A stretch of 64,000 bases of DNA from an uncultured Clostridia bacterium (lineage in GTDB: Bacteria > Bacillota > Clostridia > TANB77 > CAG-508), in contig CAKOXT010000001.1 in NCBI GenBank assembly GCA_934130285.1, forward strand, positions 435,232 to 499,231. Reading direction: 5' to 3'. The number at the start of each line of letters is the position of its first letter. Position 1 is the first letter of the stretch. The position numbers and the translations under genes were made by a program. The notes under the pieces were generated by a model. The model did not search any database. It saw nothing but the letters and a program-made list of their open reading frames with translations, and was not told the DNA's origin. This document shows, piece by piece, positions 5,139 to 53,557 of this stretch.

Positions 5139-7148
5139 TTAAATATTTCCACCGTCTGTCATATTATATGTTTCTCCTTTAGCTGTACCACTTACTGGCA
5201 CACTTAGTTGTTTGTATGTTTTTCCGTCTGCTGATATGCATATTGTTCCAATGTATGACCAATGATCAACAACAAGCCATCTTACATCAAATATATAATA
5301 TTGTTTTCCTGCACTATCTTTTCCCCAACCTGAATATGTATATCCTATATTATATCCAGTTTCTTCTGATGTAGTTCCCCATGTTTTTTCAGCTAATTTT
5401 TGTGCTTGGTCTTTTCCTATTGCTCCTTTTTCTGTTGGTTCGTCAGATGTATTTGTTGATGTTGATATAGTTGCTGAAGGCGTTGGTGTTGTACTTGGTG
5501 TTGGTGTTACGCTTTCTTCTTTGTAGCTTTCCATATAATGTTTTATTGCTTTTCCACCTTTGAATGTTAGCTCTGATGTTTTATATCCGTTTGTTATGTT
5601 TACTATTACTGTTTGTATACAGCTCCACTGTCCACCTGCATGTTCGAATTCACCTAATATGCATAATTCATTTTTATCATTAATGTATACTTTTAATTTT
5701 TCTATACTTTTTTTGATTCCGTCTTGCCATCCTGTTACTGTTTTATCATCATATAACGTACTCCAATTTGTTCCTAGTGCTGCTTTTTCTTTTGCTACTA
5801 GTGTATCATAATCTTTTCTTACTGCTTCTGTTGCTTTTGTTATTATTTCATCTTTACTTGAATTGTATTGTTTTATTAAATCTTCACTACTTATTTTGTT
5901 TAGTGTTTGTAAGTCAATATTATATGTGTCTGCTGTTATTGTTTCATTTCCGCCACTCCATACTAATACTGATAATACTGATTTATTTATTGTATATGAA
6001 TAAGAAATTTCTTCTGTTTCATATCCAACTTGGTCATAATAATTTGATGAGTTCATGCTGTCGCTAAATCCATATTTTTTCTTTATTTCTGTATTCATTG
6101 CTGCGACGTCTGTTGAATCTATGTTAATACATGGATACTCATATGTATTTCCATTTATTGTTTTTGTTGCTACTGAATAAACTATTTCTTTGCTATTATC
6201 TAATTTTTTAACATTCTTTAATGTTTTTACAGCTTCAACTTTTTCTTTTACTTCATCTGTTATCATATCGTCAGTATCAACATAATCTTTTTTAGCTTCT
6301 TCAAAAACTTTTTCTTTATCTTTTTTACTTGCGTCTTTGTCAAAGTCTACTTTTTCACTGTAATTTTCATCAACTTCTACGCAATCTGTATTTTTTGTTA
6401 ATTTTACTTCTTCTGATTTATATTCTTTATTCTCTAAATTTAAATCATAATATTTTGATGAGTTGTCTGCTTGTTTTTCAACAGCATACCAAACATAATC
6501 ATCTTTATTTGCATCATATACTAGTTTTAACTCAAAATCTTTGTCTAATGATACTTTTATTGTATCAACTTCATTTTTGTCGTTTATCTTGTATATATTT
6601 GCAATGTATTCTTTTGCATTTTTTATTCCATAAATGATTAACTCTGGTATTTTATCTCTATCCAAATCACATAATTGAATTTTTTGATTATCCATATCGT
6701 CTAATTTGTTTTTATCGTTTAGAACTTCAAGATATACATCTCCCCATTCTAATTTGCTTTGCTCTTTTGAATTGTCATCTCCATTTTCTGACATGTAGTA
6801 CCATACTCCTGCGCCAGCTCCAGCTAATAGTACAATTATTATAGCAATTACTAATATTATTTTCTTTTTGCTTTTTTTCTTGCCATTCTTTTTAGCTTCT
6901 TTAGACTTTTCTTCTGTTTTGTCTTTTTTATTTTTTTCTGGTTGTTGTGTTTCTTCAGCTTTTGGCTCTTCTTCAACTGATTTAGATTTTTCAGCTTCTT
7001 CTATTGCTCTTTTTTCTTCTTCAGCTTTTTTTGCTTCTTCATTTTTTTGAGCTTCTAGTTCTTTTGTCGCTTCTTCTATGTTTGCTCCGCATTTTGTACA
7101 GAATTTTGAGTTATCTGCAATTTTTTCATTACATTTAGGGCATATCAT
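5139..7148 (-). CDS. Zinc-ribbon domain membrane protein (N-terminal CxxC..CxxC, Lys/Glu-rich linker, single TM, large extracytoplasmic domain with a Thr/Pro/Ser linker)
   Basis: N-terminus MICPKCNEKIADNSKFCTKCGANIEE, then TM ILVIAIIIVLLAGAGAGVWYY, then TPTPSTTPTPSATISTSTNTS. It is a paralog of 58155..59477, with about 80% nucleotide identity over the first ~70 nt. Confidence 0.55.
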   Translation of the reverse strand: MICPKCNEKIADNSKFCTKCGANIEEATKELEAQKNEEAKKAEEEKRAIEEAEKSKSVEEEPKAEETQQPEKNKKDKTEEKSKEAKKNGKKKSKKKIILVIAIIIVLLAGAGAGVWYYMSENGDDNSKEQSKLEWGDVYLEVLNDKNKLDDMDNQKIQLCDLDRDKIPELIIYGIKNAKEYIANIYKINDKNEVDTIKVSLDKDFELKLVYDANKDDYVWYAVEKQADNSSKYYDLNLENKEYKSEEVKLTKNTDCVEVDENYSEKVDFDKDASKKDKEKVFEEAKKDYVDTDDMITDEVKEKVEAVKTLKNVKKLDNSKEIVYSVATKTINGNTYEYPCINIDSTDVAAMNTEIKKKYGFSDSMNSSNYYDQVGYETEEISYSYTINKSVLSVLVWSGGNETITADTYNIDLQTLNKISSEDLIKQYNSSKDEIITKATEAVRKDYDTLVAKEKAALGTNWSTLYDDKTVTGWQDGIKKSIEKLKVYINDKNELCILGEFEHAGGQWSCIQTVIVNITNGYKTSELTFKGGKAIKHYMESYKEESVTPTPSTTPTPSATISTSTNTSDEPTEKGAIGKDQAQKLAEKTWGTTSEETGYNIGYTYSGWGKDSAGKQYYIFDVRWLVVDHWSYIGTICISADGKTYKQLSVPVSGTAKGETYNMTDGGNI

Positions 7149-39696: not shown

Positions 39697-40503
39697 TTAC
39701 CAATCGCTATCCCAGTCTGTTGAACTTGAATCCCATGACGAGCTTGAGTCCCATGATGAACTAGAATCCCAATCACTGCTTGATGAACTGCTACTAGAAG
39801 AATCAGCTTTGTAGTAGCCTGAATCTGTAAAATCATCTACTCCTGAACTATAATCATAATCTCTTGTTGAGTAATAGTCTCTAAAATTATCTTTTAAATC
39901 TCTTGGCGGTGTATAGTATCCCCAATGATCATCATAGTATCTATACCATGATCCACTCTGATAGTAATAATATGTACCATCATAATTATAATATCCCCTT
40001 GATGGAGTGTTTATTCCTGTTACAATTGCTGATATAAAACCAACAATCATGATAAATGCTATAAATATTATAAATAGATGTGTTAATGTAAATTTAAACT
40101 TTTTATGTGGTCTTTCTCCATTATTAAGATTATGTTGCTTTTGATTTATTATCTCTTCTTTTAGCTTTATATATAGTTCATTTACTGCATATACTTCATC
40201 TTTTCCTTCATATCGTACGCTTCTTGTTCCATCACCTTTGTTCTTATATACAATAATGTTTCCTGTATTTTGATCTTTATATATTCCAAAGGCTTTTGGT
40301 TTGGTATAATTTTTTCCAATAAAAAATCTTGTTATATTTTCATCAGGTAAATTGTGATCTACATACCATTTTTTTAATTCTTCTATTGTTTTTGGAACGC
40401 CATCTCCAACTTTTTTTAAATGACTATTGTCCGCTCCACAATGTGGGCATTTTTCGTCTGTATCTTCTATATCTGCTCTACAATAATCGCATTTTACTTT
40501 CAT
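39697..40503 (-). CDS. Zinc-ribbon domain membrane protein with a Ser-rich SSSSW/DW repeat tail
   Basis: N-terminus MKVKCDYCRADIEDTDEKCPHCGADNS, central TM (LFIIFIAFIMIVGFISAIV) and C-terminal ...SSSSSSSSDWDSSSSWDSSSSWDSSSTDWDSDW. Confidence 0.5.
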   Translation of the reverse strand: MKVKCDYCRADIEDTDEKCPHCGADNSHLKKVGDGVPKTIEELKKWYVDHNLPDENITRFFIGKNYTKPKAFGIYKDQNTGNIIVYKNKGDGTRSVRYEGKDEVYAVNELYIKLKEEIINQKQHNLNNGERPHKKFKFTLTHLFIIFIAFIMIVGFISAIVTGINTPSRGYYNYDGTYYYYQSGSWYRYYDDHWGYYTPPRDLKDNFRDYYSTRDYDYSSGVDDFTDSGYYKADSSSSSSSSSDWDSSSSWDSSSSWDSSSTDWDSDW

Positions 40504-40523: not shown

Positions 40524-43376
40524 TTATATGTTTGGTGTTTGATTTGTTGTATCGTTTGTTACCACTGAATTTTCTGTTGTCACATTTGTTGATGTAGAAT
40601 TCTCTGGTATTGAGTTTGTTGGTGCCGGAGTAGTTAGTGGTTCATCATTATTTTGTTCATTGGTATTATATATTATTTTAACTGTTGAGTTATTTAATTC
40701 AGTTCCATAGTCTTTAAATTTAATTTCAACAGGTTCTTTACTACTGCTTGTTACGTCTATTTTGTTACAATTTTTCATTAGTATTCCATTAGTTACTCTA
40801 TAAGAAGTATTAGCAAAATATTTTCTTAACATATTTCTTAATTCTTTATATTGTGATATATCAACTTCATTTTCTTGAACATTGCTTGTATTTACAGTTA
40901 TTGTTGCATTACTAAAGTTTACATTTGGATTCTCTGTTTTTAGTTTTGCAAATTGCTCATAACTAACACCTTCTGCTACTATTGATAGAAACTCTCTTTT
41001 TAATGATGTTACAGAACTTATAAGCTCTGTAAGATTTGTGTTTTTTGAAATATTTATTATATTTAAAGCTGGTAATTTAGAAAAATCAAAGTTCTTATCA
41101 AGGTTACAGTCTGTTAAATTTAATACTCCTAAAGTTTCACTAGTTAATGTTCCTGTCAAATTTTTATTTCCAGCTAGTGATAAAGATGTAAGGTTTTTTA
41201 TTTTTGAAAGTTCATTTAAGTCTGTAAAATCGTTATTTTCTAGACTTAAATTATATAAATTTTCTAATCCTGCAATCTCAGAAACATCTTTTATATCGCA
41301 ATTATTTAACATAATTGTATCTGTGGTTGTTAACACTTGTAAGCCTGTCACATTTTTATTTCCAGATAAATCTATCCAATATATTTCTTTATCTTTAAGG
41401 CTTGATACATCTTTTATATTATTGTTAGCAAGTTCTAAAGAAATTGTTGTATTTATTTCTCCAAATATGCTAACATCTTCAATTCCACAATTTTCCGCCT
41501 TTATTGTAAATGTCATATACATTTCATCTGAATTTTCAAACTGTACTTGGCTTAAACTGCTCCAATCTGTTATTGGATTTCCAGATACATCTAATTCATA
41601 TATATTTTTAAAATTTTCTACTCCATTAAGAGTTGTTATATTATTATTTGCTATAATTAATGCACTTATATTTTGTAATATTCCTTCAGACTGTGGTACT
41701 TGTGTTAAATTACAATTGGTTAAATTTAAAATATTGAGGCTTTCTGGCAATTTGTCTAGCCCTGTTATTCCAGGTGTATCTTCAACTATTAAACTCATTA
41801 AATTTTGGCAATTTTGCAAACTACTTACATCTTTTATTTTGCAATTACTTATATCTAGCATTCCTAAATTTGATAATTCTCCCATACCAGTTACATACGG
41901 ATTGTTAGATATGTTTAAATTTAGAGTCATATAGTCTTGCTGTTTTTCCATATTTTTTAATACACTTACATCTTTTATTTGATTATTTGATGCATATATA
42001 TTTGATAATGTTTTTATTTTTGTAAGTGGTGTTAAATCTTTTATATTGTTATTTGAAATATCAATTGAATATATATTATTAAAAATTTCTATTCCATTTA
42101 ATGAATACATATTTCTATTAGATAAATCTATAGTCATTATATTTGAAATAACATTTTTAGTTATATAGTCTTCTCCATTGTATTTTATAAATAAATGACT
42201 ATAATTTTCTTTTAGATAATTCTTTATTGCAGTGTTTTGAATTGAATTTATTTTATATGCACTTTCTATTGATGTTGATACAATTCCACTAAGATTTAAC
42301 TCTACATATTTGTCATCATATGAAATATAGTAATATCCATTATTATTAGAAAATTCTCCCCATGAATTTAAAGCTATATATGCTCCGTCATGTTCTGGAG
42401 TGTGACCATTGTCTGAAAAATTTTCTTTTGAATAATTGTCATCCCATCCAACAATCGTTACTGCGTGGTTTGTCCATAGTTCGTCATTATCTGGGCTTAC
42501 ATATGCATTTTCTAATCCAGTTCCAACTATTGATGTATATAATCCGCCATTTTTCATGATATGTTTTTTTACTGCATCCCTATATTCTTTAAGTTGTTCT
42601 TCAGTGTATTTTTCTTCTATATTTTTGTATATTGAAGGAAAGTCAACTGTTTCCGTTACTTCTATCACTTTTTCCATGTCTGGAAATTTTTCATATTCTT
42701 CTTCTGAATATTCTTTAAAATCATATGGTACCTTTTCTTCTAATACCACTCCTGACTCTGCTAAATATTCTTTAAACATTCCAAAATTTCCGCCCTCATG
42801 TAGTTCTCTTGATCCATACATTAAATTTGATGTTATATAGTCTACATGTAATTCAGAAAAATCATAATTTCCTAAGTTATTTAGTGCAAGATATGTTTCA
42901 AGGCTCTTAATTGATGCGAAATCCCAACACAATCCATATCCACCTTGATTTTCCACTTTTATATCTATTTTGTCTGCTAAATTAAATTGTGTAGGTATTT
43001 CATTATTTGTTTTGTCTCCTTTATCAAGATTCTCTTTTATATCTTCAATTTTTTCAAAAGGCACTTCTTCTTTTCTTGGAATTACTTCTAGGTCTTTCTT
43101 TTCTTCTTCTGGTAGTTCTAAGTATTCTTTATACATTTCAGAATAATTTTTCTCTTCATCTTTTTGACTTTCTGAACTTATACCAGCAATTTCTTTTTCA
43201 ACATCTGTTAATGTATCTATGCTTTTTTCTTTATCTTGGTTTGTAATATCTGATTGAGCAATTTTTGACTGTTCTTTTTCTTTTGACTTGTTTACAACAT
43301 ATATTCCTGCTACTATACCAAGCATTATAGCTATAACAGCTATCACAGCAATGATACTGCGTCTTTTATTTTTCAT
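40524..43376 (-). CDS. Large membrane-anchored surface protein: papain-like (C1) cysteine peptidase domain fused to internalin-like leucine-rich repeats
   Basis: N-terminal TM. C1 catalytic triad contexts QGGYGLCWDFAS (Cys), NHAVTIVGWDDN (His) and NSWGEF (Asn). More than 15 LRR units follow (LxxLxxLxLxxNxIxDxxxL, e.g. LSNIYASNNQIKDVSVL). The C-terminus has a Thr/Asn-rich tail and no LPXTG. Confidence 0.7.
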   Translation of the reverse strand: MKNKRRSIIAVIAVIAIMLGIVAGIYVVNKSKEKEQSKIAQSDITNQDKEKSIDTLTDVEKEIAGISSESQKDEEKNYSEMYKEYLELPEEEKKDLEVIPRKEEVPFEKIEDIKENLDKGDKTNNEIPTQFNLADKIDIKVENQGGYGLCWDFASIKSLETYLALNNLGNYDFSELHVDYITSNLMYGSRELHEGGNFGMFKEYLAESGVVLEEKVPYDFKEYSEEEYEKFPDMEKVIEVTETVDFPSIYKNIEEKYTEEQLKEYRDAVKKHIMKNGGLYTSIVGTGLENAYVSPDNDELWTNHAVTIVGWDDNYSKENFSDNGHTPEHDGAYIALNSWGEFSNNNGYYYISYDDKYVELNLSGIVSTSIESAYKINSIQNTAIKNYLKENYSHLFIKYNGEDYITKNVISNIMTIDLSNRNMYSLNGIEIFNNIYSIDISNNNIKDLTPLTKIKTLSNIYASNNQIKDVSVLKNMEKQQDYMTLNLNISNNPYVTGMGELSNLGMLDISNCKIKDVSSLQNCQNLMSLIVEDTPGITGLDKLPESLNILNLTNCNLTQVPQSEGILQNISALIIANNNITTLNGVENFKNIYELDVSGNPITDWSSLSQVQFENSDEMYMTFTIKAENCGIEDVSIFGEINTTISLELANNNIKDVSSLKDKEIYWIDLSGNKNVTGLQVLTTTDTIMLNNCDIKDVSEIAGLENLYNLSLENNDFTDLNELSKIKNLTSLSLAGNKNLTGTLTSETLGVLNLTDCNLDKNFDFSKLPALNIINISKNTNLTELISSVTSLKREFLSIVAEGVSYEQFAKLKTENPNVNFSNATITVNTSNVQENEVDISQYKELRNMLRKYFANTSYRVTNGILMKNCNKIDVTSSSKEPVEIKFKDYGTELNNSTVKIIYNTNEQNNDEPLTTPAPTNSIPENSTSTNVTTENSVVTNDTTNQTPNI

Positions 43377-45146: not shown

Positions 45147-46379
45147 CTATTTTTTTCTTCTTATAATCCAATTTTCTTTTACTTCTATTGGTAAAATAAT
45201 TTTAACTTTTTGATTTGCTCTTCCTGGATTTACTGTATCTATTTCCTCATCTGTTTCAATATCCCATAGTTTTTCGATTTTAAACTTTTCTGTTTCTAGT
45301 TTGCCTGGAATTAGAATTTCCATTTCATCTCCAACAGTTAGTTTGTTTTTGATTTCTAGTATTGTTTTTTTGTTTTCTTTTCCTACAACTTTTGCTCCGA
45401 ATTCATATTCTAGATTATATTGTTTTCCTTCATATTCTTGAAAATCTTTATTGTTTCTGTCATTGAAATAAAATGTTGTTAAGCCTCTTGTTTTTGTTTT
45501 TTCTAGTTCTTTTAGATATTTTGTATAATCATAATTTTCAGGATCTTTCATGTAATCATCTATTGCGTTTCTGTATGCACTTACAACTGATGCTAAATAA
45601 TATTCTGTTTTAAGTCTTCCTTCTATTTTTATACTATCTACTCCCATTTCTATGATTTCTGGTATCTCTTTTATTAAGCATAGATCTTTTGATGAAAATA
45701 TATATGTTCCGTTTTCGTCATCTTCAACTGGCATAAGGTTTCCTGGTTTATTCTTTTCTTCTACATATACGTTGTATGCCCATCTACAGCTTTGTGCGCA
45801 ATCTCCAAGGTTTGCACTTCTTCCACATAAGAAATCACTTAAGAAACATCTTCCTGAATATCCAAAACATATGGCTCCATGGCAGAACATTTCGACTTCT
45901 AGATCTTCTGGTTTATTTTGAATTAATTCTTTTATTTGGTCTTTGCTCATTTCTCTTCCAAGAATTACTCTTTTGGCGCCATTATGATACCAAAAATTTG
46001 ATGTATGGTAACTTATTACATTGGCCTGTGTGCTTATATGAATGTCTACGTTTGGTGCATATTCTTTTAGAACTTCTATTACTCCTCCGTCTGAAGCTAT
46101 TATTCCATCTGGTTTTATTTCATTAAGTTCTTTTGCAACTTTTATTATCTCATCATATTTTTCATCCCATGCAAATATATTTAAAGCAACATATACTTTT
46201 TTATTAATTTTATGTGCATATTCTATTGTTTGTTTTAGCTCATCATCATTTACACTTACTCTTGTTCTAAGTGATAAACTTTTAGTTCCCATGTACACAG
46301 CATCTGCTCCATATAAAAATGCAATTTTAGCTTTTTCAAAGCTTCCTGCTGGGGCTAATAATTCTATATTTTTCATCAT
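45147..46379 (-). CDS. Peptidase U32 family protein (TrhP/RlhA-like prephenate-dependent tRNA/rRNA hydroxylation factor)
   Basis: IELLAPAGSFEKAKIAFLYGADAVYMG is the U32 N-terminal signature. Size 410 aa. A trmR-like methyltransferase gene lies about 2.7 kb away at 49128..49748. Confidence 0.8.
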   Translation of the reverse strand: MMKNIELLAPAGSFEKAKIAFLYGADAVYMGTKSLSLRTRVSVNDDELKQTIEYAHKINKKVYVALNIFAWDEKYDEIIKVAKELNEIKPDGIIASDGGVIEVLKEYAPNVDIHISTQANVISYHTSNFWYHNGAKRVILGREMSKDQIKELIQNKPEDLEVEMFCHGAICFGYSGRCFLSDFLCGRSANLGDCAQSCRWAYNVYVEEKNKPGNLMPVEDDENGTYIFSSKDLCLIKEIPEIIEMGVDSIKIEGRLKTEYYLASVVSAYRNAIDDYMKDPENYDYTKYLKELEKTKTRGLTTFYFNDRNNKDFQEYEGKQYNLEYEFGAKVVGKENKKTILEIKNKLTVGDEMEILIPGKLETEKFKIEKLWDIETDEEIDTVNPGRANQKVKIILPIEVKENWIIRRKK

Positions 46380-46506
46380 ACATTTGTCCTTTCTATGCTA
46401 ATTCAACATAAATAATATACCATATATCATACTTAAAATCCAGTTATTTCTAGACTTTTTTTATTTTCCATGATATAATTTTTACGTTTGCGAGGTGATT
46501 TTATAG

Positions 46507-47250
46507 ATGACAAAAGATAATGACTTTCTGAAAAGTCTTATTGTTGACAAAGAAACAATTCAAAGAACAAATGCTTTATCTAGGTTTGCTGGGAAAAGAG
46601 CCTATTACATTTCACATTATAAAAACGCTTACCTTAAGCATTTGAAAGATGAATATAATAAACTTCATAAAATGTTTCCGAATGTAGAAATAGTTCCTGA
46701 AGCCAGAATAAAAGGGCAAAAAAGTTATGCTGATAAAGTTAAAAGAGTAGTAAATGAAGATCCAAATAAAGACATTTATGATATCTTTGCTAATAGATAT
46801 ATCGTTCTATCTGTGAATGGATCAAATTCTGATAAAGATATAGTTCCTATTTTATATCAAATTAGAGATTATTTGGCATATTCTAATCCTAATAATGAAA
46901 TTATGCCTGAACGTATTAAAGATTATATTGTAAATCCTAAACATTCTACATATCAGTCTTTGCACTTAACACGTTTACATCATGATACTCCATATGAACC
47001 ATATCAGTCTGAAACACAGCTTAGAAGTTATTTTATGCATTCTAACGCTCATAGTGGTCGTGCAAGTCATGCTAATACTTATAAGGAAAGAATTCCTGGG
47101 AAGACACCACTTCCTAATTTGCTTGAGTATGTTTTTGATGAAAATGGGGCATGTGTTGAAGTAAAAGAAAAAAGTTATGAAAAAGCTTTTGAGGACTTTT
47201 TCGGTATACCTTATGATCCTCGACTTTTTTCTTCTTTTAAAGAAAAATAA
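46507..47250 (+). CDS. Divergent RelA/SpoT-synthetase-domain (small alarmone synthetase-like nucleotidyltransferase) protein
   Basis: Synthetase-domain motifs are present in the right order: ARIKGQKSYADKVKR (cf. GRVKxxxSxxxK), DIFANRY (cf. DIAGLRI), YQSLHL (cf. YRSxHL) and ETQLRSYFMHSNAHSGRASHANTYK (cf. EIQIRTLAMNFWATIEHSLNYK). It is clearly diverged from canonical RelQ/RelP. RBS gaggtga and an extended -10 tgatataat lie upstream. Confidence 0.6.
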   Translation: MTKDNDFLKSLIVDKETIQRTNALSRFAGKRAYYISHYKNAYLKHLKDEYNKLHKMFPNVEIVPEARIKGQKSYADKVKRVVNEDPNKDIYDIFANRYIVLSVNGSNSDKDIVPILYQIRDYLAYSNPNNEIMPERIKDYIVNPKHSTYQSLHLTRLHHDTPYEPYQSETQLRSYFMHSNAHSGRASHANTYKERIPGKTPLPNLLEYVFDENGACVEVKEKSYEKAFEDFFGIPYDPRLFSSFKEK

Positions 47251-47323
47251 TATATTTCATATTGATTTCAATATAAAAATATTATAAGATATTCGTAAAT
47301 CTAATAAGAATGGAGTAATTTAT

Positions 47324-48247
47324 ATGGAAAAAATATTAGTTTTTGGACATAAAAGTCCTGATACAGATACTATAGCATCTTCAATTGCTATGGCTTATTT
47401 ACAAACAAAATTGGGGAAATTAGCTGAACCTAGAAGACTTGGTAATATCTCAAAAGAAACTGAATATGCTTTAAATCATTTTAAAGTTGGAGTTCCTGAA
47501 CTTCTAGATTCTGTTTCTGAAAATGATACAGTCATTTTAGTTGATCATAATGAACCAGATCAATCAGCTGATAATATGCTAAATTCAAAAGTTTATATGG
47601 TTGTTGACCATCATCAAATAAATGGATTCCGTACACCTGGTCCTTTATATTATTATGCTGAACCTGTTGGTTGTACTTGTACAATTATTTATAAATTATT
47701 TAATCAAAACGATGTTATTATTCCTGCTGATGTTGCTGGTTTAATGTTAAGTGCTATCATTTCTGATACTTTACTTTTCAAATCACCAACTTGCACAGAA
47801 ACAGATAAAAAGGTTGCTGAAGATTTAGCTAAAATAGCTAATGTTGATATTAACTCTTATGGATTAGCTATGCTTAAAGCTGGTACTGATTTAACTTCTT
47901 TCTCTGAAGAAGAACTTGTTAACTTAGATGGAAAAATAGTTAACTTAACTGATACAGTTAAAGCAAAGATTTCTCAAGTTAATACAGCTGATATTGATGA
48001 AGTATTACTTAGACAAGCAAAATTAGAAGCTGCTATGAATAAAGATATTGAGAATTTAGGATTAGCTATTGATGTTTTACTAATTACTGATATTATAAAT
48101 AGTAACTCTCAAGTTGTTGTTTTAGGTGAAAAAGCAGATGTTGTCGAAAAAGCTTTTGGTGTTAAATTAGAAAATAATACAGCTTTCTTGCCAGGTGTTG
48201 TTTCTAGAAAGAAACAAGTTATACCTGTACTTACAGCTAATGTTTAA
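47324..48247 (+). CDS. ppaC: Manganese-dependent inorganic pyrophosphatase (DHH family II)
   Basis: MEKILVFGHKSPDTDTIASSIA, DHH motif VDHHQ and a DHHA2 C-terminal domain. Size 307 aa. Confidence 0.85.
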   Translation: MEKILVFGHKSPDTDTIASSIAMAYLQTKLGKLAEPRRLGNISKETEYALNHFKVGVPELLDSVSENDTVILVDHNEPDQSADNMLNSKVYMVVDHHQINGFRTPGPLYYYAEPVGCTCTIIYKLFNQNDVIIPADVAGLMLSAIISDTLLFKSPTCTETDKKVAEDLAKIANVDINSYGLAMLKAGTDLTSFSEEELVNLDGKIVNLTDTVKAKISQVNTADIDEVLLRQAKLEAAMNKDIENLGLAIDVLLITDIINSNSQVVVLGEKADVVEKAFGVKLENNTAFLPGVVSRKKQVIPVLTANV

Positions 48248-48277
48248 TATAGAATCTGAAAATTGTATGTAATATAA

Positions 48278-48312
48278 AAGATGGGCATTTATAAAAAGCT
48301 CATCTTTTTTCT
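48278..48312 (+). terminator. Rho-independent terminator after ppaC
   Basis: aagatgggc-atttataaaaa-gctcatctt followed by tttttt. Confidence 0.5.
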
Positions 48313-48348
48313 ATGTAATCAGATTTTATTCCTATTTTTTACTATTGA

Positions 48349-48514
48349 AGTTTTATTAGAAAAATAAATTTATTTTACCTTGTTTCGTGGTTTAGAAGCT
48401 CTAACGAAAATCAATCAGCGTCCTCATTGCTGTGAGATTCCCTAATTGATTTTCTTAAGAGCTTCTACTACCACTCTCACTGCGCAACCATAAATTTATT
48501 TTTCTAATAAAACT
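48349..48514. repeat. 166-bp nested palindromic element (23-bp perfect outer inverted repeat around a ~27-bp inner stem with a 30-nt loop); MITE-like, structured RNA or recombination site
   Basis: Outer IR: ttttattagaaaaataaatttat ... ataaatttatttttctaataaaa. Inner IR: gtggtttagaagctctaacgaaaatcaat ... attgattttcttaagagcttctactaccac. It lies at the boundary of GC-rich cassette 3. Confidence 0.55.
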
Positions 48515-48540
48515 TCATAATAATAAGATCGTGATGATAA

Positions 48541-48575
48541 TAAAAAGATTGGAGGGGTAGCCCCCTCCTTTTTTT
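48541..48575 (-). terminator. GC-rich bidirectional terminator downstream of the 160-aa GC-rich ORF
   Basis: ggaggggtagccccctcc flanked by A/T runs. Confidence 0.5.
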
Positions 48576-48583
48576 GTGTTTCG

Positions 48584-49066
48584 TTAATCATACGTATAAA
48601 GAATGTCGATGTACTCTTCAAAATTTCCCTGAACTTTTTCACCTTCCCTATTTGTGTATTGTCCATAAGATTCCTCGAGTGTTGGCAACCGCTGAAGTTC
48701 TGTACGCACTCCGTTTTCGCCAACATACACCCATCTTTTTCTGAACTTCACAAAGCTCATTGTACCATAATAATAAGCTTCGTCATTCTGACCCCAAAGT
48801 ACTCGTTGAAGCAAAACATTTTTTGTTGTTTCAACATATTCTCGTGGTAGTGGCTTAAGTGAGGGGACTTCCGTAGTGACATACCACAGGTTATACCGAT
48901 GCATATAGTCACTTACTTCATCTCTAAATCTCCAATACCGGTCAGTTACCACGTCGGTTTTGTATACTACATTAATCTTCTGTAAAGAATCAATATGTTT
49001 CAAAACCTCCTCTGGAATGACTAAATGTGGGTGAAGCTTCCGTGCTAATTTTTGAATAAGTTTCAT
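48584..49066 (-). CDS. Hypothetical 160-aa protein in a G+C-elevated cassette (start MKLIQKLARK)
   Basis: GGAGG lies 9 nt upstream of the ATG at 49066. The ORF-track start at 49108 is an upstream extension. Composition is clearly GC-richer than the flanks. No family recognised. The overlapping 76-aa ORF 48496..48726 is judged spurious. Confidence 0.5.
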   Translation of the reverse strand: MKLIQKLARKLHPHLVIPEEVLKHIDSLQKINVVYKTDVVTDRYWRFRDEVSDYMHRYNLWYVTTEVPSLKPLPREYVETTKNVLLQRVLWGQNDEAYYYGTMSFVKFRKRWVYVGENGVRTELQRLPTLEESYGQYTNREGEKVQGNFEEYIDILYTYD

Positions 49067-49127
49067 CTTGAAACACCTCCATATTGTTGATAATTTTAAT
49101 ATTAGCACTTTATGTTAATTAAGTCAA

Positions 49128-49748
49128 TTACTTTCTTACTTTTGTTATGGCTAGGCCATCACCTATTTCCAATATTTCTGATTCACATTTATCATTTTCT
49201 GTAATCTCTTTTATGTATTCTCTTAAATGTCTTACTGCTGTACGTTGCTTATGCGCATTGTAATCACTCATAACATATCCTTTATACAAAATGTTGTCTG
49301 CTAAAATTATTCCACCATCTTTTATTAATCTGATTGCGTTTTCTAAGAATATTGGATATTTTCCTTTTGCAGCATCTATGAACACTATATCATATGTGCT
49401 TGTTAGTGTTGGCAATATATCTACTGCATTTCCAACCATTATATTTATTCTTTTTGCTACTCCTATTTTCTTAATGTTTTCTTCTGCTTCTTTAGCTCTT
49501 TCTTCATCAATTTCTATTGTATCAATTGTGCAATCTTCATCTGTGCTTTTAGCAAACATACTTGCTGAATAACCAACTGCTGTTCCTATTTCTAGAATTC
49601 TTTTTGGCTTTTCTTCTTGAAGGATTTCTTCTATTTTTTCTAAAGTATCATCCATTAATATTGGTATATGATTTTCTAATGCTTTTTCTTTTACTTTTTT
49701 TAACTCTTCTTCGTTAAACATATCTTCTCCTATACTTGAATATTGCAA
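49128..49748 (-). CDS. Class I SAM-dependent O-methyltransferase (TrmR/YrrM-like tRNA 5-hydroxyuridine methyltransferase)
   Basis: ILEIGTAVGYSASMFA (SAM motif I) and FIDAAKGKY...DGGIILADNILYKG, the YrrM/caffeoyl-CoA OMT fold. Size 206 aa. Confidence 0.75.
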   Translation of the reverse strand: MQYSSIGEDMFNEEELKKVKEKALENHIPILMDDTLEKIEEILQEEKPKRILEIGTAVGYSASMFAKSTDEDCTIDTIEIDEERAKEAEENIKKIGVAKRINIMVGNAVDILPTLTSTYDIVFIDAAKGKYPIFLENAIRLIKDGGIILADNILYKGYVMSDYNAHKQRTAVRHLREYIKEITENDKCESEILEIGDGLAITKVRK

Positions 49749-51717: not shown

Positions 51718-51746
51718 ATTATATTACTTTTCATTAATTTTGTCAA
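51718..51746 (-). promoter_or_regulatory. Perfect-consensus sigma-A promoter for typA (TTGACA-17-TATAAT)
   Basis: Minus-strand sequence ttgacaaaattaatgaaaagtaatataat. The 5' UTR contains the GC hairpin ggggcgtagattctacgccc. Confidence 0.5.
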
Positions 51747-53557
51747 TCTGTATATACTATTACTGTTTTATTATATTTTAATGTTAGTTCAGTTGATGAA
51801 AGTCCACTATATACCCATGCATTTTCTAGTGTTATCTGCTTATTATCTTTATTATAAATTGCATCTAAGTTATAAATTCCTCCACTTCCATTTCCATTTC
51901 TTTGGAATGTCATTGTTCTCTTTTCACCTGTTTCGCTATTCTCTAGTTCTAAAACAACTTTATTTACATTTTCAAGTTCTAGTTCTTTTAATTCACCTGT
52001 TGTCGTATCTCTTGTCATAATTGAGTGAGAATTGTCTGCATCTGTCATAGCGTCTTGGTTTATTTTTATTGATTCTGCTATTGCCTTAAATGCATTTATT
52101 AATTCTGTGGCATTATCTGCTGTATATGCACCTTTTATGTTTTCTTTAAAGTACTGTGGAAATGATTTTGCTTCTTTTCCAAGTCCAACAGCGTATACGT
52201 CTGTTGGATGGTCTCCTTTAACAATTTGCATTATATTTTTAGCAACATTACCAATACTAGTTGTTGTATTCGTACATGGCCACCAATAAGCGTTTGAGTC
52301 ACCATCTGTCATAATAATTACATCTGTTGGCATATTTGCATCAGTTGTTTGAATATAATTATATGCATAATTCAAAGCGTTTGGTGCACAAGTACTATAA
52401 TTTAATGATGCTGGTGTTATTCCTGAATACAATCTTGAATATTGACTATTAGCAAGCCTACAATTTATTTGATAGGTTCCTCTTGAAGAAATAGAAAAAT
52501 AGTCATCTATTCTTAAATCACTGTTTGTATATGATATAGCTCTCCAGCCATATCGGTTTTCATAACTTTTGTATGTATCTATTATTGTTTTGACCATATT
52601 TGTATACTGTGCTTCTGAAAAAATAGTGCTATATAATGATTTAGCTTCATCTTTATTGGTACATGTTCCTAGTTCTCGAATTCCGCTGTCATTTGCTCCA
52701 TAAAAAGTTATAATTGTAACTTTCCTATCCGTTGATGGAGTGTTTCCAAAATATGTATCCATAAATTGGTCCATTGCTGTTACTGTTGAGTACCATCTTG
52801 TTTGTTGGTATCCCGCTGTATAATTTATTGATCCGTCACTATTATAACAAATAGGAATATCTTCATCTTTATCAGCTACATTGGCTACTGCTGGATCATT
52901 TGGATCGTTACATAAAGCCATTGAAACCGTTCTGTCTATTACCATTACTACTTCATGCGATTGTACTACTTCTTTTGGGTTTACTGATAATTTTATTAAT
53001 TGTGATTCGAATTCAGATGTATTTTTCTTTTTATCAGCTCCACCAAAATTTGATAGTTTGCCATATGTCTTTTGATTTTTTAGATATGCTGCATTTAAAT
53101 CCACATCTACAACATATATTCCTTTATCCTGCAAATCAGATAATTCTTTATATTTGAAGTTTGTTAGTTTCTCTTCGTTCTCATATTCTTTTGCTTTTAA
53201 TCCTAAGGTATCAGCTACTGAAATGTCGGGGTTTTCAAAATTTACATAGTACAAATACTTGTCATCATCTTCACTGTCACTTTTGGCTCCAGTTAATGTA
53301 ATCTTTTTAAGAATCCCTTCTGATACTAAATCATCCAATGACTTTTTTGATGATGAATAAGCATTATTACTTTTTAATGTATATGCTTTAATACTATCAT
53401 CTAAAGCTTGGACTTTATTCATATATTTTCCTGTTCTCATTCCAGAAAAAATTCCGTTTTCCCCTAATGTAAATGTTATTGTAACTGTTGATAACACTAT
53501 CATTACTAGTATTGTAATTACTAGTGCTATTAAAGTTATTCCTCTTTGGTTTCTCAT
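51743..53557 (-). CDS. Modular prepilin-like protein carrying a von Willebrand factor A (vWA) domain
   Basis: N-terminus MRNQRGITLIALVITILVMIVLSTV is an atypical class III-like segment. The vWA MIDAS region is VVMVIDRTVSM (DxTxS) and the beta4 strand VIIMTDGDSN. There is no LPXTG. Size 604 aa. Confidence 0.55.
   Translation of the reverse strand: MRNQRGITLIALVITILVMIVLSTVTITFTLGENGIFSGMRTGKYMNKVQALDDSIKAYTLKSNNAYSSSKKSLDDLVSEGILKKITLTGAKSDSEDDDKYLYYVNFENPDISVADTLGLKAKEYENEEKLTNFKYKELSDLQDKGIYVVDVDLNAAYLKNQKTYGKLSNFGGADKKKNTSEFESQLIKLSVNPKEVVQSHEVVMVIDRTVSMALCNDPNDPAVANVADKDEDIPICYNSDGSINYTAGYQQTRWYSTVTAMDQFMDTYFGNTPSTDRKVTIITFYGANDSGIRELGTCTNKDEAKSLYSTIFSEAQYTNMVKTIIDTYKSYENRYGWRAISYTNSDLRIDDYFSISSRGTYQINCRLANSQYSRLYSGITPASLNYSTCAPNALNYAYNYIQTTDANMPTDVIIMTDGDSNAYWWPCTNTTTSIGNVAKNIMQIVKGDHPTDVYAVGLGKEAKSFPQYFKENIKGAYTADNATELINAFKAIAESIKINQDAMTDADNSHSIMTRDTTTGELKELELENVNKVVLELENSETGEKRTMTFQRNGNGSGGIYNLDAIYNKDNKQITLENAWVYSGLSSTELTLKYNKTVIVYTD

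Follow-up and report, generated by a model that had tools for sequence, protein, structure and literature searches.

The window, the whole 64-kb stretch of DNA that was analysed, carries a gene for a RelA_SpoT synthetase domain protein, here called SAS-like, in a neighbourhood of core translation genes. On the minus strand lie lysS and a trhP-like U32 gene, followed by the SAS-like gene and ppaC on the plus strand, and then by ORF174, trmR and bipA, again on the minus strand. A preliminary description of this DNA had reported a plus-strand gene in a minus-strand neighbourhood, and this is indeed what we found, with ppaC sharing the plus strand. The SAS-like gene is divergent from the trhP-like gene across a gap of 127 bp, and ppaC follows it in the same direction after 73 bp. 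The features of the locus are as follows.

45147-46379, minus strand: trhP-like peptidase-U32 tRNA-U34 hydroxylase gene (Pfam Peptidase_U32 and U32_C; NCBIfam TrhP, E 3.9e-106, below the cutoff)
46451-46479, plus strand: putative sigma-70-type promoter, -35 TAGACT, 17-nt spacer, extended -10 TGATATAAT (10/12 match, with TG)
46492-46497, plus strand: Shine-Dalgarno sequence GAGGTG, 9 nt 5' of the ATG
46507-47250, plus strand: SAS-like gene, RelA_SpoT synthetase domain protein of 247 aa, ATG start
46507-46683, plus strand: N-terminal helical segment, aa 1-59, with helices 5-10, 15-27 and 30-56 in the AF2 model
46684-47091, plus strand: SYNTH catalytic core, aa 60-195
Residues of the SYNTH core: R67, K69, S73, K77, D92, R97, R136, K138, D139, Y140, K145, Y149, H153, E169, Q171, H188, Y192, K193
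47092-47247, plus strand: conserved C-terminal mini-domain, aa 196-247, a beta-hairpin and two helices
47324-48247, plus strand: ppaC, Mn-dependent family II inorganic pyrophosphatase (NCBIfam NF003877, 401 bits, cutoff 283; Pfam DHH and DHHA2)
48276-48308, plus strand: putative terminator downstream of ppaC, a hairpin with a trailing T-run (inverted repeat I4 and sequence)
49128-49748, minus strand: trmR-like O-methyltransferase gene (ho5U34 to mo5U34; Pfam Methyltransf_3)

ORF174 (48584-49108, minus strand), between ppaC and trmR, encodes 174 aa (160 aa as called in the near-identical strain L001), is specific to one strain group and had no match in Pfam, NCBIfam, PADLOC or PHROG. Since it differs from its counterpart in L001 by 7 synonymous and 0 non-synonymous changes, it is probably a real gene. 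Elsewhere in the window, LRR repeats and a Peptidase_C1 domain mark a 950-aa protein (40524-43376, minus strand), which differs from its counterpart in the 98.6%-identical strain L001 by 14 non-synonymous and 13 synonymous changes and thus resembles a surface or secreted protein that evolves fast. A 268-aa zinc-ribbon protein (39697-40503, minus strand) has a transmembrane segment and a Ser/Asp/Trp-rich repetitive tail, and a 604-aa protein (51743-53557, minus strand) begins with a hydrophobic pilin-like N-terminus (MRNQRGITLIALVITILVM...).

Pfam RelA_SpoT (PF04607) matched aa 67-194 of the SAS-like protein with an E-value of 7.7e-14 and 52.4 bits (gathering cutoff 27), which is far beyond chance, and was the sole Pfam domain of its 247 aa; all six further family members that we searched with the same model (6/6) also scored above the cutoff. 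The 247-aa reading frame reported on the plus strand was recovered at 46507-47250, and the ordered motif set ascribed to it could be read off residue by residue: R67-x-K69, S73 and K77; D92-IFAN-R97; Y149-QSL-H153-L; E169-T-Q171-L-R173; H188; and Y192-K193. A further motif, R136-I-K138-D139-Y140, is followed by K145. The residues required of an RSH donor and catalytic site (R67, K69, S73, K77, D92, R97, Y149, E169 and Q171) were all present, and their spacing agrees with that of the ATP-site residues listed for FaRel2: R64, K66, S70, K74, D90, R95, Y128, E145 and Q147 (PMC11782079). On the acceptor side, motifs like those of long Rel are retained (RIKDYIxxPK and MH..A..G.A.H..YK), as are the long-Rel-like basic residues near the acceptor tyrosine, K138, K145 and H153. 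Across 37 sequences, down to 21% identity, R67, K69, K77, D92, Y149, H153, E169, Q171, Y192, K193 and P203 were invariant; besides P203, this set consists of catalytic and donor-site residues and the acceptor-stacking tyrosine. The invariance of the active site among sequences so diverged indicates that selection has kept it and speaks against a pseudoenzyme. The protein has the RSH-type nucleotidyltransferase alpha/beta fold and, judged by its sequence, is a complete but highly diverged single-domain RSH synthetase with intact catalytic residues.

The core is flanked by extra segments on both sides, as had been described, each about 50 aa long. In the AF2 model the N-terminal 59 aa are ordered and helical, with pLDDT values of 80-97 across aa 11-60, and L27, K30, R31, Y34, E49, Y50, N51, F57 and P58 are kept in the close family. 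The N-terminal extension is thus real, but its proposed uniqueness holds only in part, as alignments of the family profile to RelA begin at profile position 21, from where the segment aligns with the helices that precede the SYNTH core in RelA. K30-R31, at a helix junction, recalls K28/R29 of FaRel2, which are needed for tRNA binding by that enzyme, whose N-terminal helices anchor the tRNA (PMC11782079). We rejected a tRNA anchor of this kind for the family, because K30/R31 are conserved in the close subclade only and not in the wide family.

The C-terminal extension was borne out and is conserved. Its model consists of strands 204-210 and 216-221, a helix at 224-232 and short helices thereafter. 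Within the close family, P203, Y208, G214, C216, F231 and F232 do not vary, and the wide family shows the pattern VPxY...hairpin...F..F[FY][FY]G..Y. Comparison of the mini-domain with solved structures, including the pZFD of CapRel with which a comparison had been proposed, revealed no similarity. Just after the helix, YDPxL[FY] stands in the window protein and its subclade, and Y-[DE]-x-[YF] in many distant members. In RelQ and RelP, C-terminal helices form the homotetramer interface (PMC11782079); the AF2 model does not predict such helices and places a beta-hairpin and two short helices there instead. The mini-domain is likely a lineage-specific regulatory or oligomerisation element.

We compared the protein with the known RSH families. 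The strong divergence from RelQ and RelP noted beforehand was evident, as the NCBIfam RelQ (YjbM) model NF053588 gave 20.8 bits against a cutoff of 320 (the best E-value for this model in the 37 family members was 3.8e-09), and structural alignments gave 18-24% identity to RelQ (SAS1/YjbM) and RelP (SAS2/YwaC), the gene neighbours of which also differ. TIGR00691 gave 47 bits against a cutoff of 499 and covered only model positions 176-319 of 687. None of the 37 members passed any curated NCBIfam subfamily model, and the best match was a long-RSH model in 33 of them. Searched as a single protein against PDB sequences, the SAS-like protein matched long Rel best (E 3e-6), RelP reaching only E 0.17. 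With the family profile, all 21 PDB matches at E<=0.01 were (p)ppGpp synthetases (Rel 2.7e-18, RelP 2.8e-17, RelA 4.5e-14, RelQ 5e-11), and no toxSAS, CapRel included, was among them. The SYNTH domain of long Rel is thus among the closest known systems (B. subtilis Rel 6yxa/8acu, S. aureus Rel 7oiw, RelSeq 1vj7). Long RSHs (Rel/RelA/SpoT), however, have an HD hydrolase domain on the N-terminal side of SYNTH and regulatory TGS and ACT/RRM domains on its C-terminal side, whereas the SAS-like protein lacks these and has, within 247 aa, a C-terminal mini-domain of its own. CapRel(SJ46) (7ztb) differs in being a fused toxin-antitoxin tRNA pyrophosphokinase with a pZFD, to which the SAS-like appendage of about 52 aa has no detectable similarity; the pZFD carries a YXXY motif that the window protein lacks. 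FaRel2 and Tas1 were distant in structural comparison. A 714-aa ORF considered as a long Rel within the window proved to be PNPase, and other RSH genes are absent from the 64 kb. The published RSH classification lists cloRel as a 'Firmicutes' SAS group.

The gene had alternatively been suggested to be simply the lineage's diverged RelQ. This did not hold, the RelQ model being failed widely and the long-Rel SYNTH domain being closer; with 20.8 bits against 320, the protein falls outside housekeeping RelQ/RelP. By these comparisons the gene represents an unclassified SAS subfamily that is real, intact and common, and neither RelQ nor RelP.

The promoter elements upstream of the gene are also kept in three relatives (L004, L010 and L015), and extended -10 elements were seen in distant loci. 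GAGGTGA is kept in L004, L007, L009, L010 and L015. No terminator was found in the 73-bp gap between the SAS-like gene and ppaC, and the two are probably co-transcribed, the hairpin at 48276-48308 being the probable end of the unit. Farther on, at 48551-48568, there is a strong bidirectional terminator. We rejected the presence of a riboswitch or leader RNA upstream of the gene, since the Rfam search of the window at gathering thresholds returned nothing and that of 46300-48650 at E<=1 returned only sub-threshold noise. Between the terminator-like hairpin after ppaC and the terminator at 48551-48568 we also noted a nested inverted repeat (48346-48517), whose outer arms (28 nt) are 100% and inner arms (26 nt) 88% complementary. 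The whole element is predicted to form a single 172-nt hairpin (MFE -66.2 kcal/mol, z -13.9), has no Rfam match and is single-copy in the window; it recurs in the near-identical strain L001 (7840-8011) and in 0 other loci, and may represent a structured ncRNA or an element of the MITE type.

The gene had been called an orphan. This label did not survive the searches, which recovered 34 close homologs, a wider family of about 60 clusters and the same neighbourhood in relatives. The close homologs came from a word-indexed search of 5.8 billion proteins (full-length ones 229-259 aa, 46-99% identical). A profile search of 1.84 billion cluster representatives gave 24 clusters at E<=1e-30, and full-length profile matches that take in the C-terminal extension comprise about 60 clusters of 230-380 aa, long RSHs appearing only near E 1e-18. 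In a scan of metagenomes with a 10-sequence alignment, L016 was the one true family member recovered, most matches being generic RSH cores; the generic loci were reused as a negative control. The reading frame was intact in every lineage sampled. The exact window protein occurs on at least 23 long contigs with an identical neighbourhood in all, and its 90% cluster has 84 members. The family is frequent in animal and human gut metagenomes; the single match in the species-representative genome set was a Clostridia MAG from a water-deer rectum, and a family member at NCBI (MCI8546156.1) is annotated merely as 'hypothetical protein [Clostridia bacterium]'. Housekeeping proteins of the window organism were also found on public contigs of 913,168 and 1,405,955 bp, pointing to a near-complete small genome of roughly 28-30% GC.

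The SAS-like protein diverges much faster than its neighbours. Across the loci, identity to the window was 80-95% for BipA, 70-89% for TrhP, 64-83% for TrmR and 77-81% for LysS, and 26-67% for the SAS-like protein. In the close subclade the SAS-like protein was 46-67% identical against 84-89% for TrhP, and in distant members 26-38% against 70-72% for TrhP and 80-84% for BipA. The divergence of the SAS-like protein thus follows that of TrhP, a pattern consistent with vertical inheritance of a gene that evolves far faster. The high identities of BipA, TrhP, TrmR and LysS, together with a GC content of 24-33% throughout the hosts, indicate that these form one related group of uncultured low-GC gut Clostridia, to which the subfamily is confined. 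Relative to L001, the only near-identical pair available, the SAS-like gene has 3 non-synonymous and 4 synonymous differences, too few for dN/dS. The pI in the family ranges from 5.0 to 9.3 and there is no consistent basic surface, and we therefore rejected a basic, nucleic-acid-binding character of the family.

We found the gene order of the window also in L004, L007, L009, L010 and L015, whose SAS-like proteins are 46-67% identical to that of the window. The pairing with ppaC is conserved in this close subclade only. In five distant loci (L013 and L096-L099) ppaC is absent and the SAS-like gene is still divergent from the U32 gene, across a gap of about 160-350 bp; their downstream genes vary, being trmR and bipA, scpA/recX/recA, dnaJ/dnaK/grpE/hrcA, or a 452-aa unknown followed by trmR. 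In L011 and L016 trmR is kept (in L016 also bipA), and the U32 gene was not within the fetched flank. Overall, the U32 (trhP) gene adjoins the SAS-like gene in 11 of 13 loci, that is, in 10 of 12 distinct lineages, and trmR is near it in 9 of 12. At the 79 generic RSH loci of the control, a TrhP, TrmR or BipA neighbour was found at none (0/79). In L013 the SAS-like gene lies 7 bp from the next ORF; trmR (6144-6735) of that locus is inverted, co-directional with the SAS-like gene and called as two pieces of 56 and 153 aa, which suggests a frameshift or sequencing error. Downstream of bipA, the relatives carry a variable gene that Pfam does not match.

A single operon comprises trmR (yrrM) and trhP2/trhP1 (yrrN/yrrO) in B. 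subtilis (PMC6599085), so that the SAS unit interrupts an ancestral arrangement. An insertion splitting trhP from trmR had been proposed on the basis of the window; its position was right, with SAS-ppaC and ORF174 lying between the two genes, but it is not a recent insertion, being old and inherited. The gene is vertically inherited at a fixed chromosomal position in one lineage. It occupies this same position in relatives with BipA 80-95% identical, and thus shows the synteny across the genus that had been named beforehand as one of the observations that would together count against the proposal.

The preliminary description had raised the possibility of a toxin or defence enzyme of the toxSAS/CapRel type. 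What defines toxSAS modules is an adjacent antitoxin gene in a conserved operon of two or three genes (PMC7229694). In contrast to toxSAS (FaRel, FaRel2, PhRel, PhRel2 and unfused CapRel), the SAS-like gene has trhP and ppaC or other housekeeping genes as neighbours in all lineages, and, as had been remarked, no antitoxin ORF adjoins it; the gaps of 127 bp upstream and 73 bp downstream contain no conserved small ORF. Steady expression of an enzyme without a partner is hard to reconcile with an unneutralised toxin. The gene lies outside prophages, defence islands and mobile elements, and a scan of IMG/VR viral contigs found no family members. Carriage by phages or plasmids was rejected, since tblastn matches in phage and plasmid collections were ordinary long Rel genes. 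Two 'UNVERIFIED' phage records that seemingly reached into the C-terminal region, L100 (MT839930.1) and L101 (OR846646.1), are bacterial chromosomal DNA with rel loci (secDF-recJ-apt-rel and rel-dtd-hisS-aspS, respectively). The PHROG match of the protein was marginal (E 0.005). The PADLOC single-gene defence candidate PDC-S33 was matched by 35 of 37 members, but the match is weak (32 bits) and does not reach beyond the SYNTH core common to both, at positions 34-175 of the 349 in the profile. With a fixed position, a conserved promoter and Shine-Dalgarno sequence, no mobile carriage and profile matches to (p)ppGpp synthetases only, the toxin-defence reading is not supported, and the protein is not demonstrably a toxSAS. 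What still favours such a reading is that the protein evolves fast, that its C-terminal mini-domain is unexplained and that CapRel is structurally near.

The explanation that we prefer, and hold to be probable on balance if only modestly so, is that the protein is a cytoplasmic single-domain RSH pyrophosphokinase making (pp)pGpp, a housekeeping-type SAS of a previously unclassified subfamily and not a toxin. ATP would bind the donor site formed by R67, K69, S73, K77 and R97, with D92 holding Mg2+ and with E169/Q171 taking part, and the acceptor, a purine nucleotide stacked on Y149, would receive the beta-gamma pyrophosphate of this ATP on its 3'-OH. We infer that the acceptor is most probably GTP, GDP or GMP and the product (pp)pGpp. 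The gene may be expressed from its own consensus-like promoter, probably together with ppaC in this subclade, and the protein may serve as a housekeeping or stress-signalling source of alarmone. The C-terminal mini-domain would stand in for the tetramerisation helices of RelQ/RelP, in regulation or oligomerisation. The domain, the fold, the residue conservation, the extent of the family, the synteny and the freedom from toxin-antitoxin or mobile context are shown by the analysis; acceptor, product, expression pattern and the role of the appendage are what we infer. Against it, none of the curated models assigns the protein to a characterised (p)ppGpp-synthesising family, and the protein evolves far faster than its neighbours, an unusual pace for an enzyme of core signalling. 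It further counts against the explanation that acceptor specificity cannot be read from the sequence; the RSH papers that we examined (PMC11782079 among them) offer no determinants at sequence level by which guanine, adenine and tRNA acceptors could be told apart.

It is unlikely, though worth weighing, that the acceptor of this RSH-fold pyrophosphokinase is not a guanine nucleotide, and is instead the tRNA 3'-CCA, as for CapRel, FaRel2 and PhRel2, or ATP/ADP, yielding (p)ppApp, possibly with a tie to trhP/trmR. The divergent pairing with trhP persists in 10/12 distinct lineages despite differing outer neighbours, and generic RSH loci lack such neighbours altogether; in L013 the gene runs with trmR, next to another ORF, and the ordered N-terminal helices resemble those that anchor tRNA in FaRel2. 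However, the hosts are rather closely related (BipA 80-95% identical), so that inherited adjacency of two genes with a short promoter region in common suffices to explain the trhP-SAS pairing, and trmR and trhP are ancestrally adjacent anyway (PMC6599085). Neither the FaRel2-like K30/R31 nor a consistent basic surface extends through the wide family, its profile reaches no toxSAS in the PDB (FaRel2 and Tas1 being distant), and the basic residues around the acceptor tyrosine are kept as in long Rel. We found no literature joining alarmone synthetases with TrhP or U32 proteins, and the likelihood of a functional link of the gene to tRNA-U34 modification is low but non-zero.

A self-contained, auto-inhibited toxSAS-like enzyme of growth arrest or defence, of the fused CapRel type, would account for a lone gene without a partner whose product bears a conserved C-terminal beta/alpha appendage, the latter acting as an in-cis antitoxin or sensor released by a trigger. 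The Y-[DE]-x-[YF] after the helix of many distant members recalls the YXXY of the pZFD (PMC11782079), and rapid evolution and the PDC-S33 match point the same way. Yet the window protein and its subclade have YDPxL[FY] at this place, the PDC-S33 match is limited to the shared core, the position in the core genome amid translation genes is fixed, viral contigs yielded no members, and the consensus-like promoter and strong Shine-Dalgarno sequence point to steady expression; we judge this reading of the protein quite improbable. That the gene is a decaying or non-catalytic remnant of a long-Rel SYNTH domain, kept by its position only, could be argued from its fast evolution relative to its neighbours and from the non-synonymous share of its differences from L001, but is hardly credible given catalytic residues invariant down to 21% identity, reading frames intact in all lineages sampled, a confident structure prediction and conserved expression signals.

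SAS proteins split into housekeeping makers of (p)ppGpp and toxic enzymes acting on ATP pools or tRNA; to which of the two a new SAS subfamily belongs cannot yet be predicted from sequence. In the family described here, a Rel-like active site goes together with a C-terminal mini-domain that has no match, and the gene is persistently paired with one for tRNA modification. It is doubtful, in our estimate, that it will turn out to be either a fixed RSH pyrophosphokinase family partnered with the trhP/trmR U34 pathway (through non-lethal pyrophosphorylation of tRNA or another non-guanine acceptor, by which translation would be kept under regulated control) or a self-inhibited toxSAS with a previously unseen 50-aa C-terminal switch. 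Interest in it would rise sharply if the acceptor were non-guanine or if the SAS-like protein were the lineage's only RSH enzyme. Should the acceptor be another one, the protein would tie RSH enzymes to tRNA modification in a setting other than that of toxins. If the protein is a true (pp)pGpp synthetase, it fills a gap in the annotation of the stringent response in an uncultured lineage of Clostridia with small genomes.
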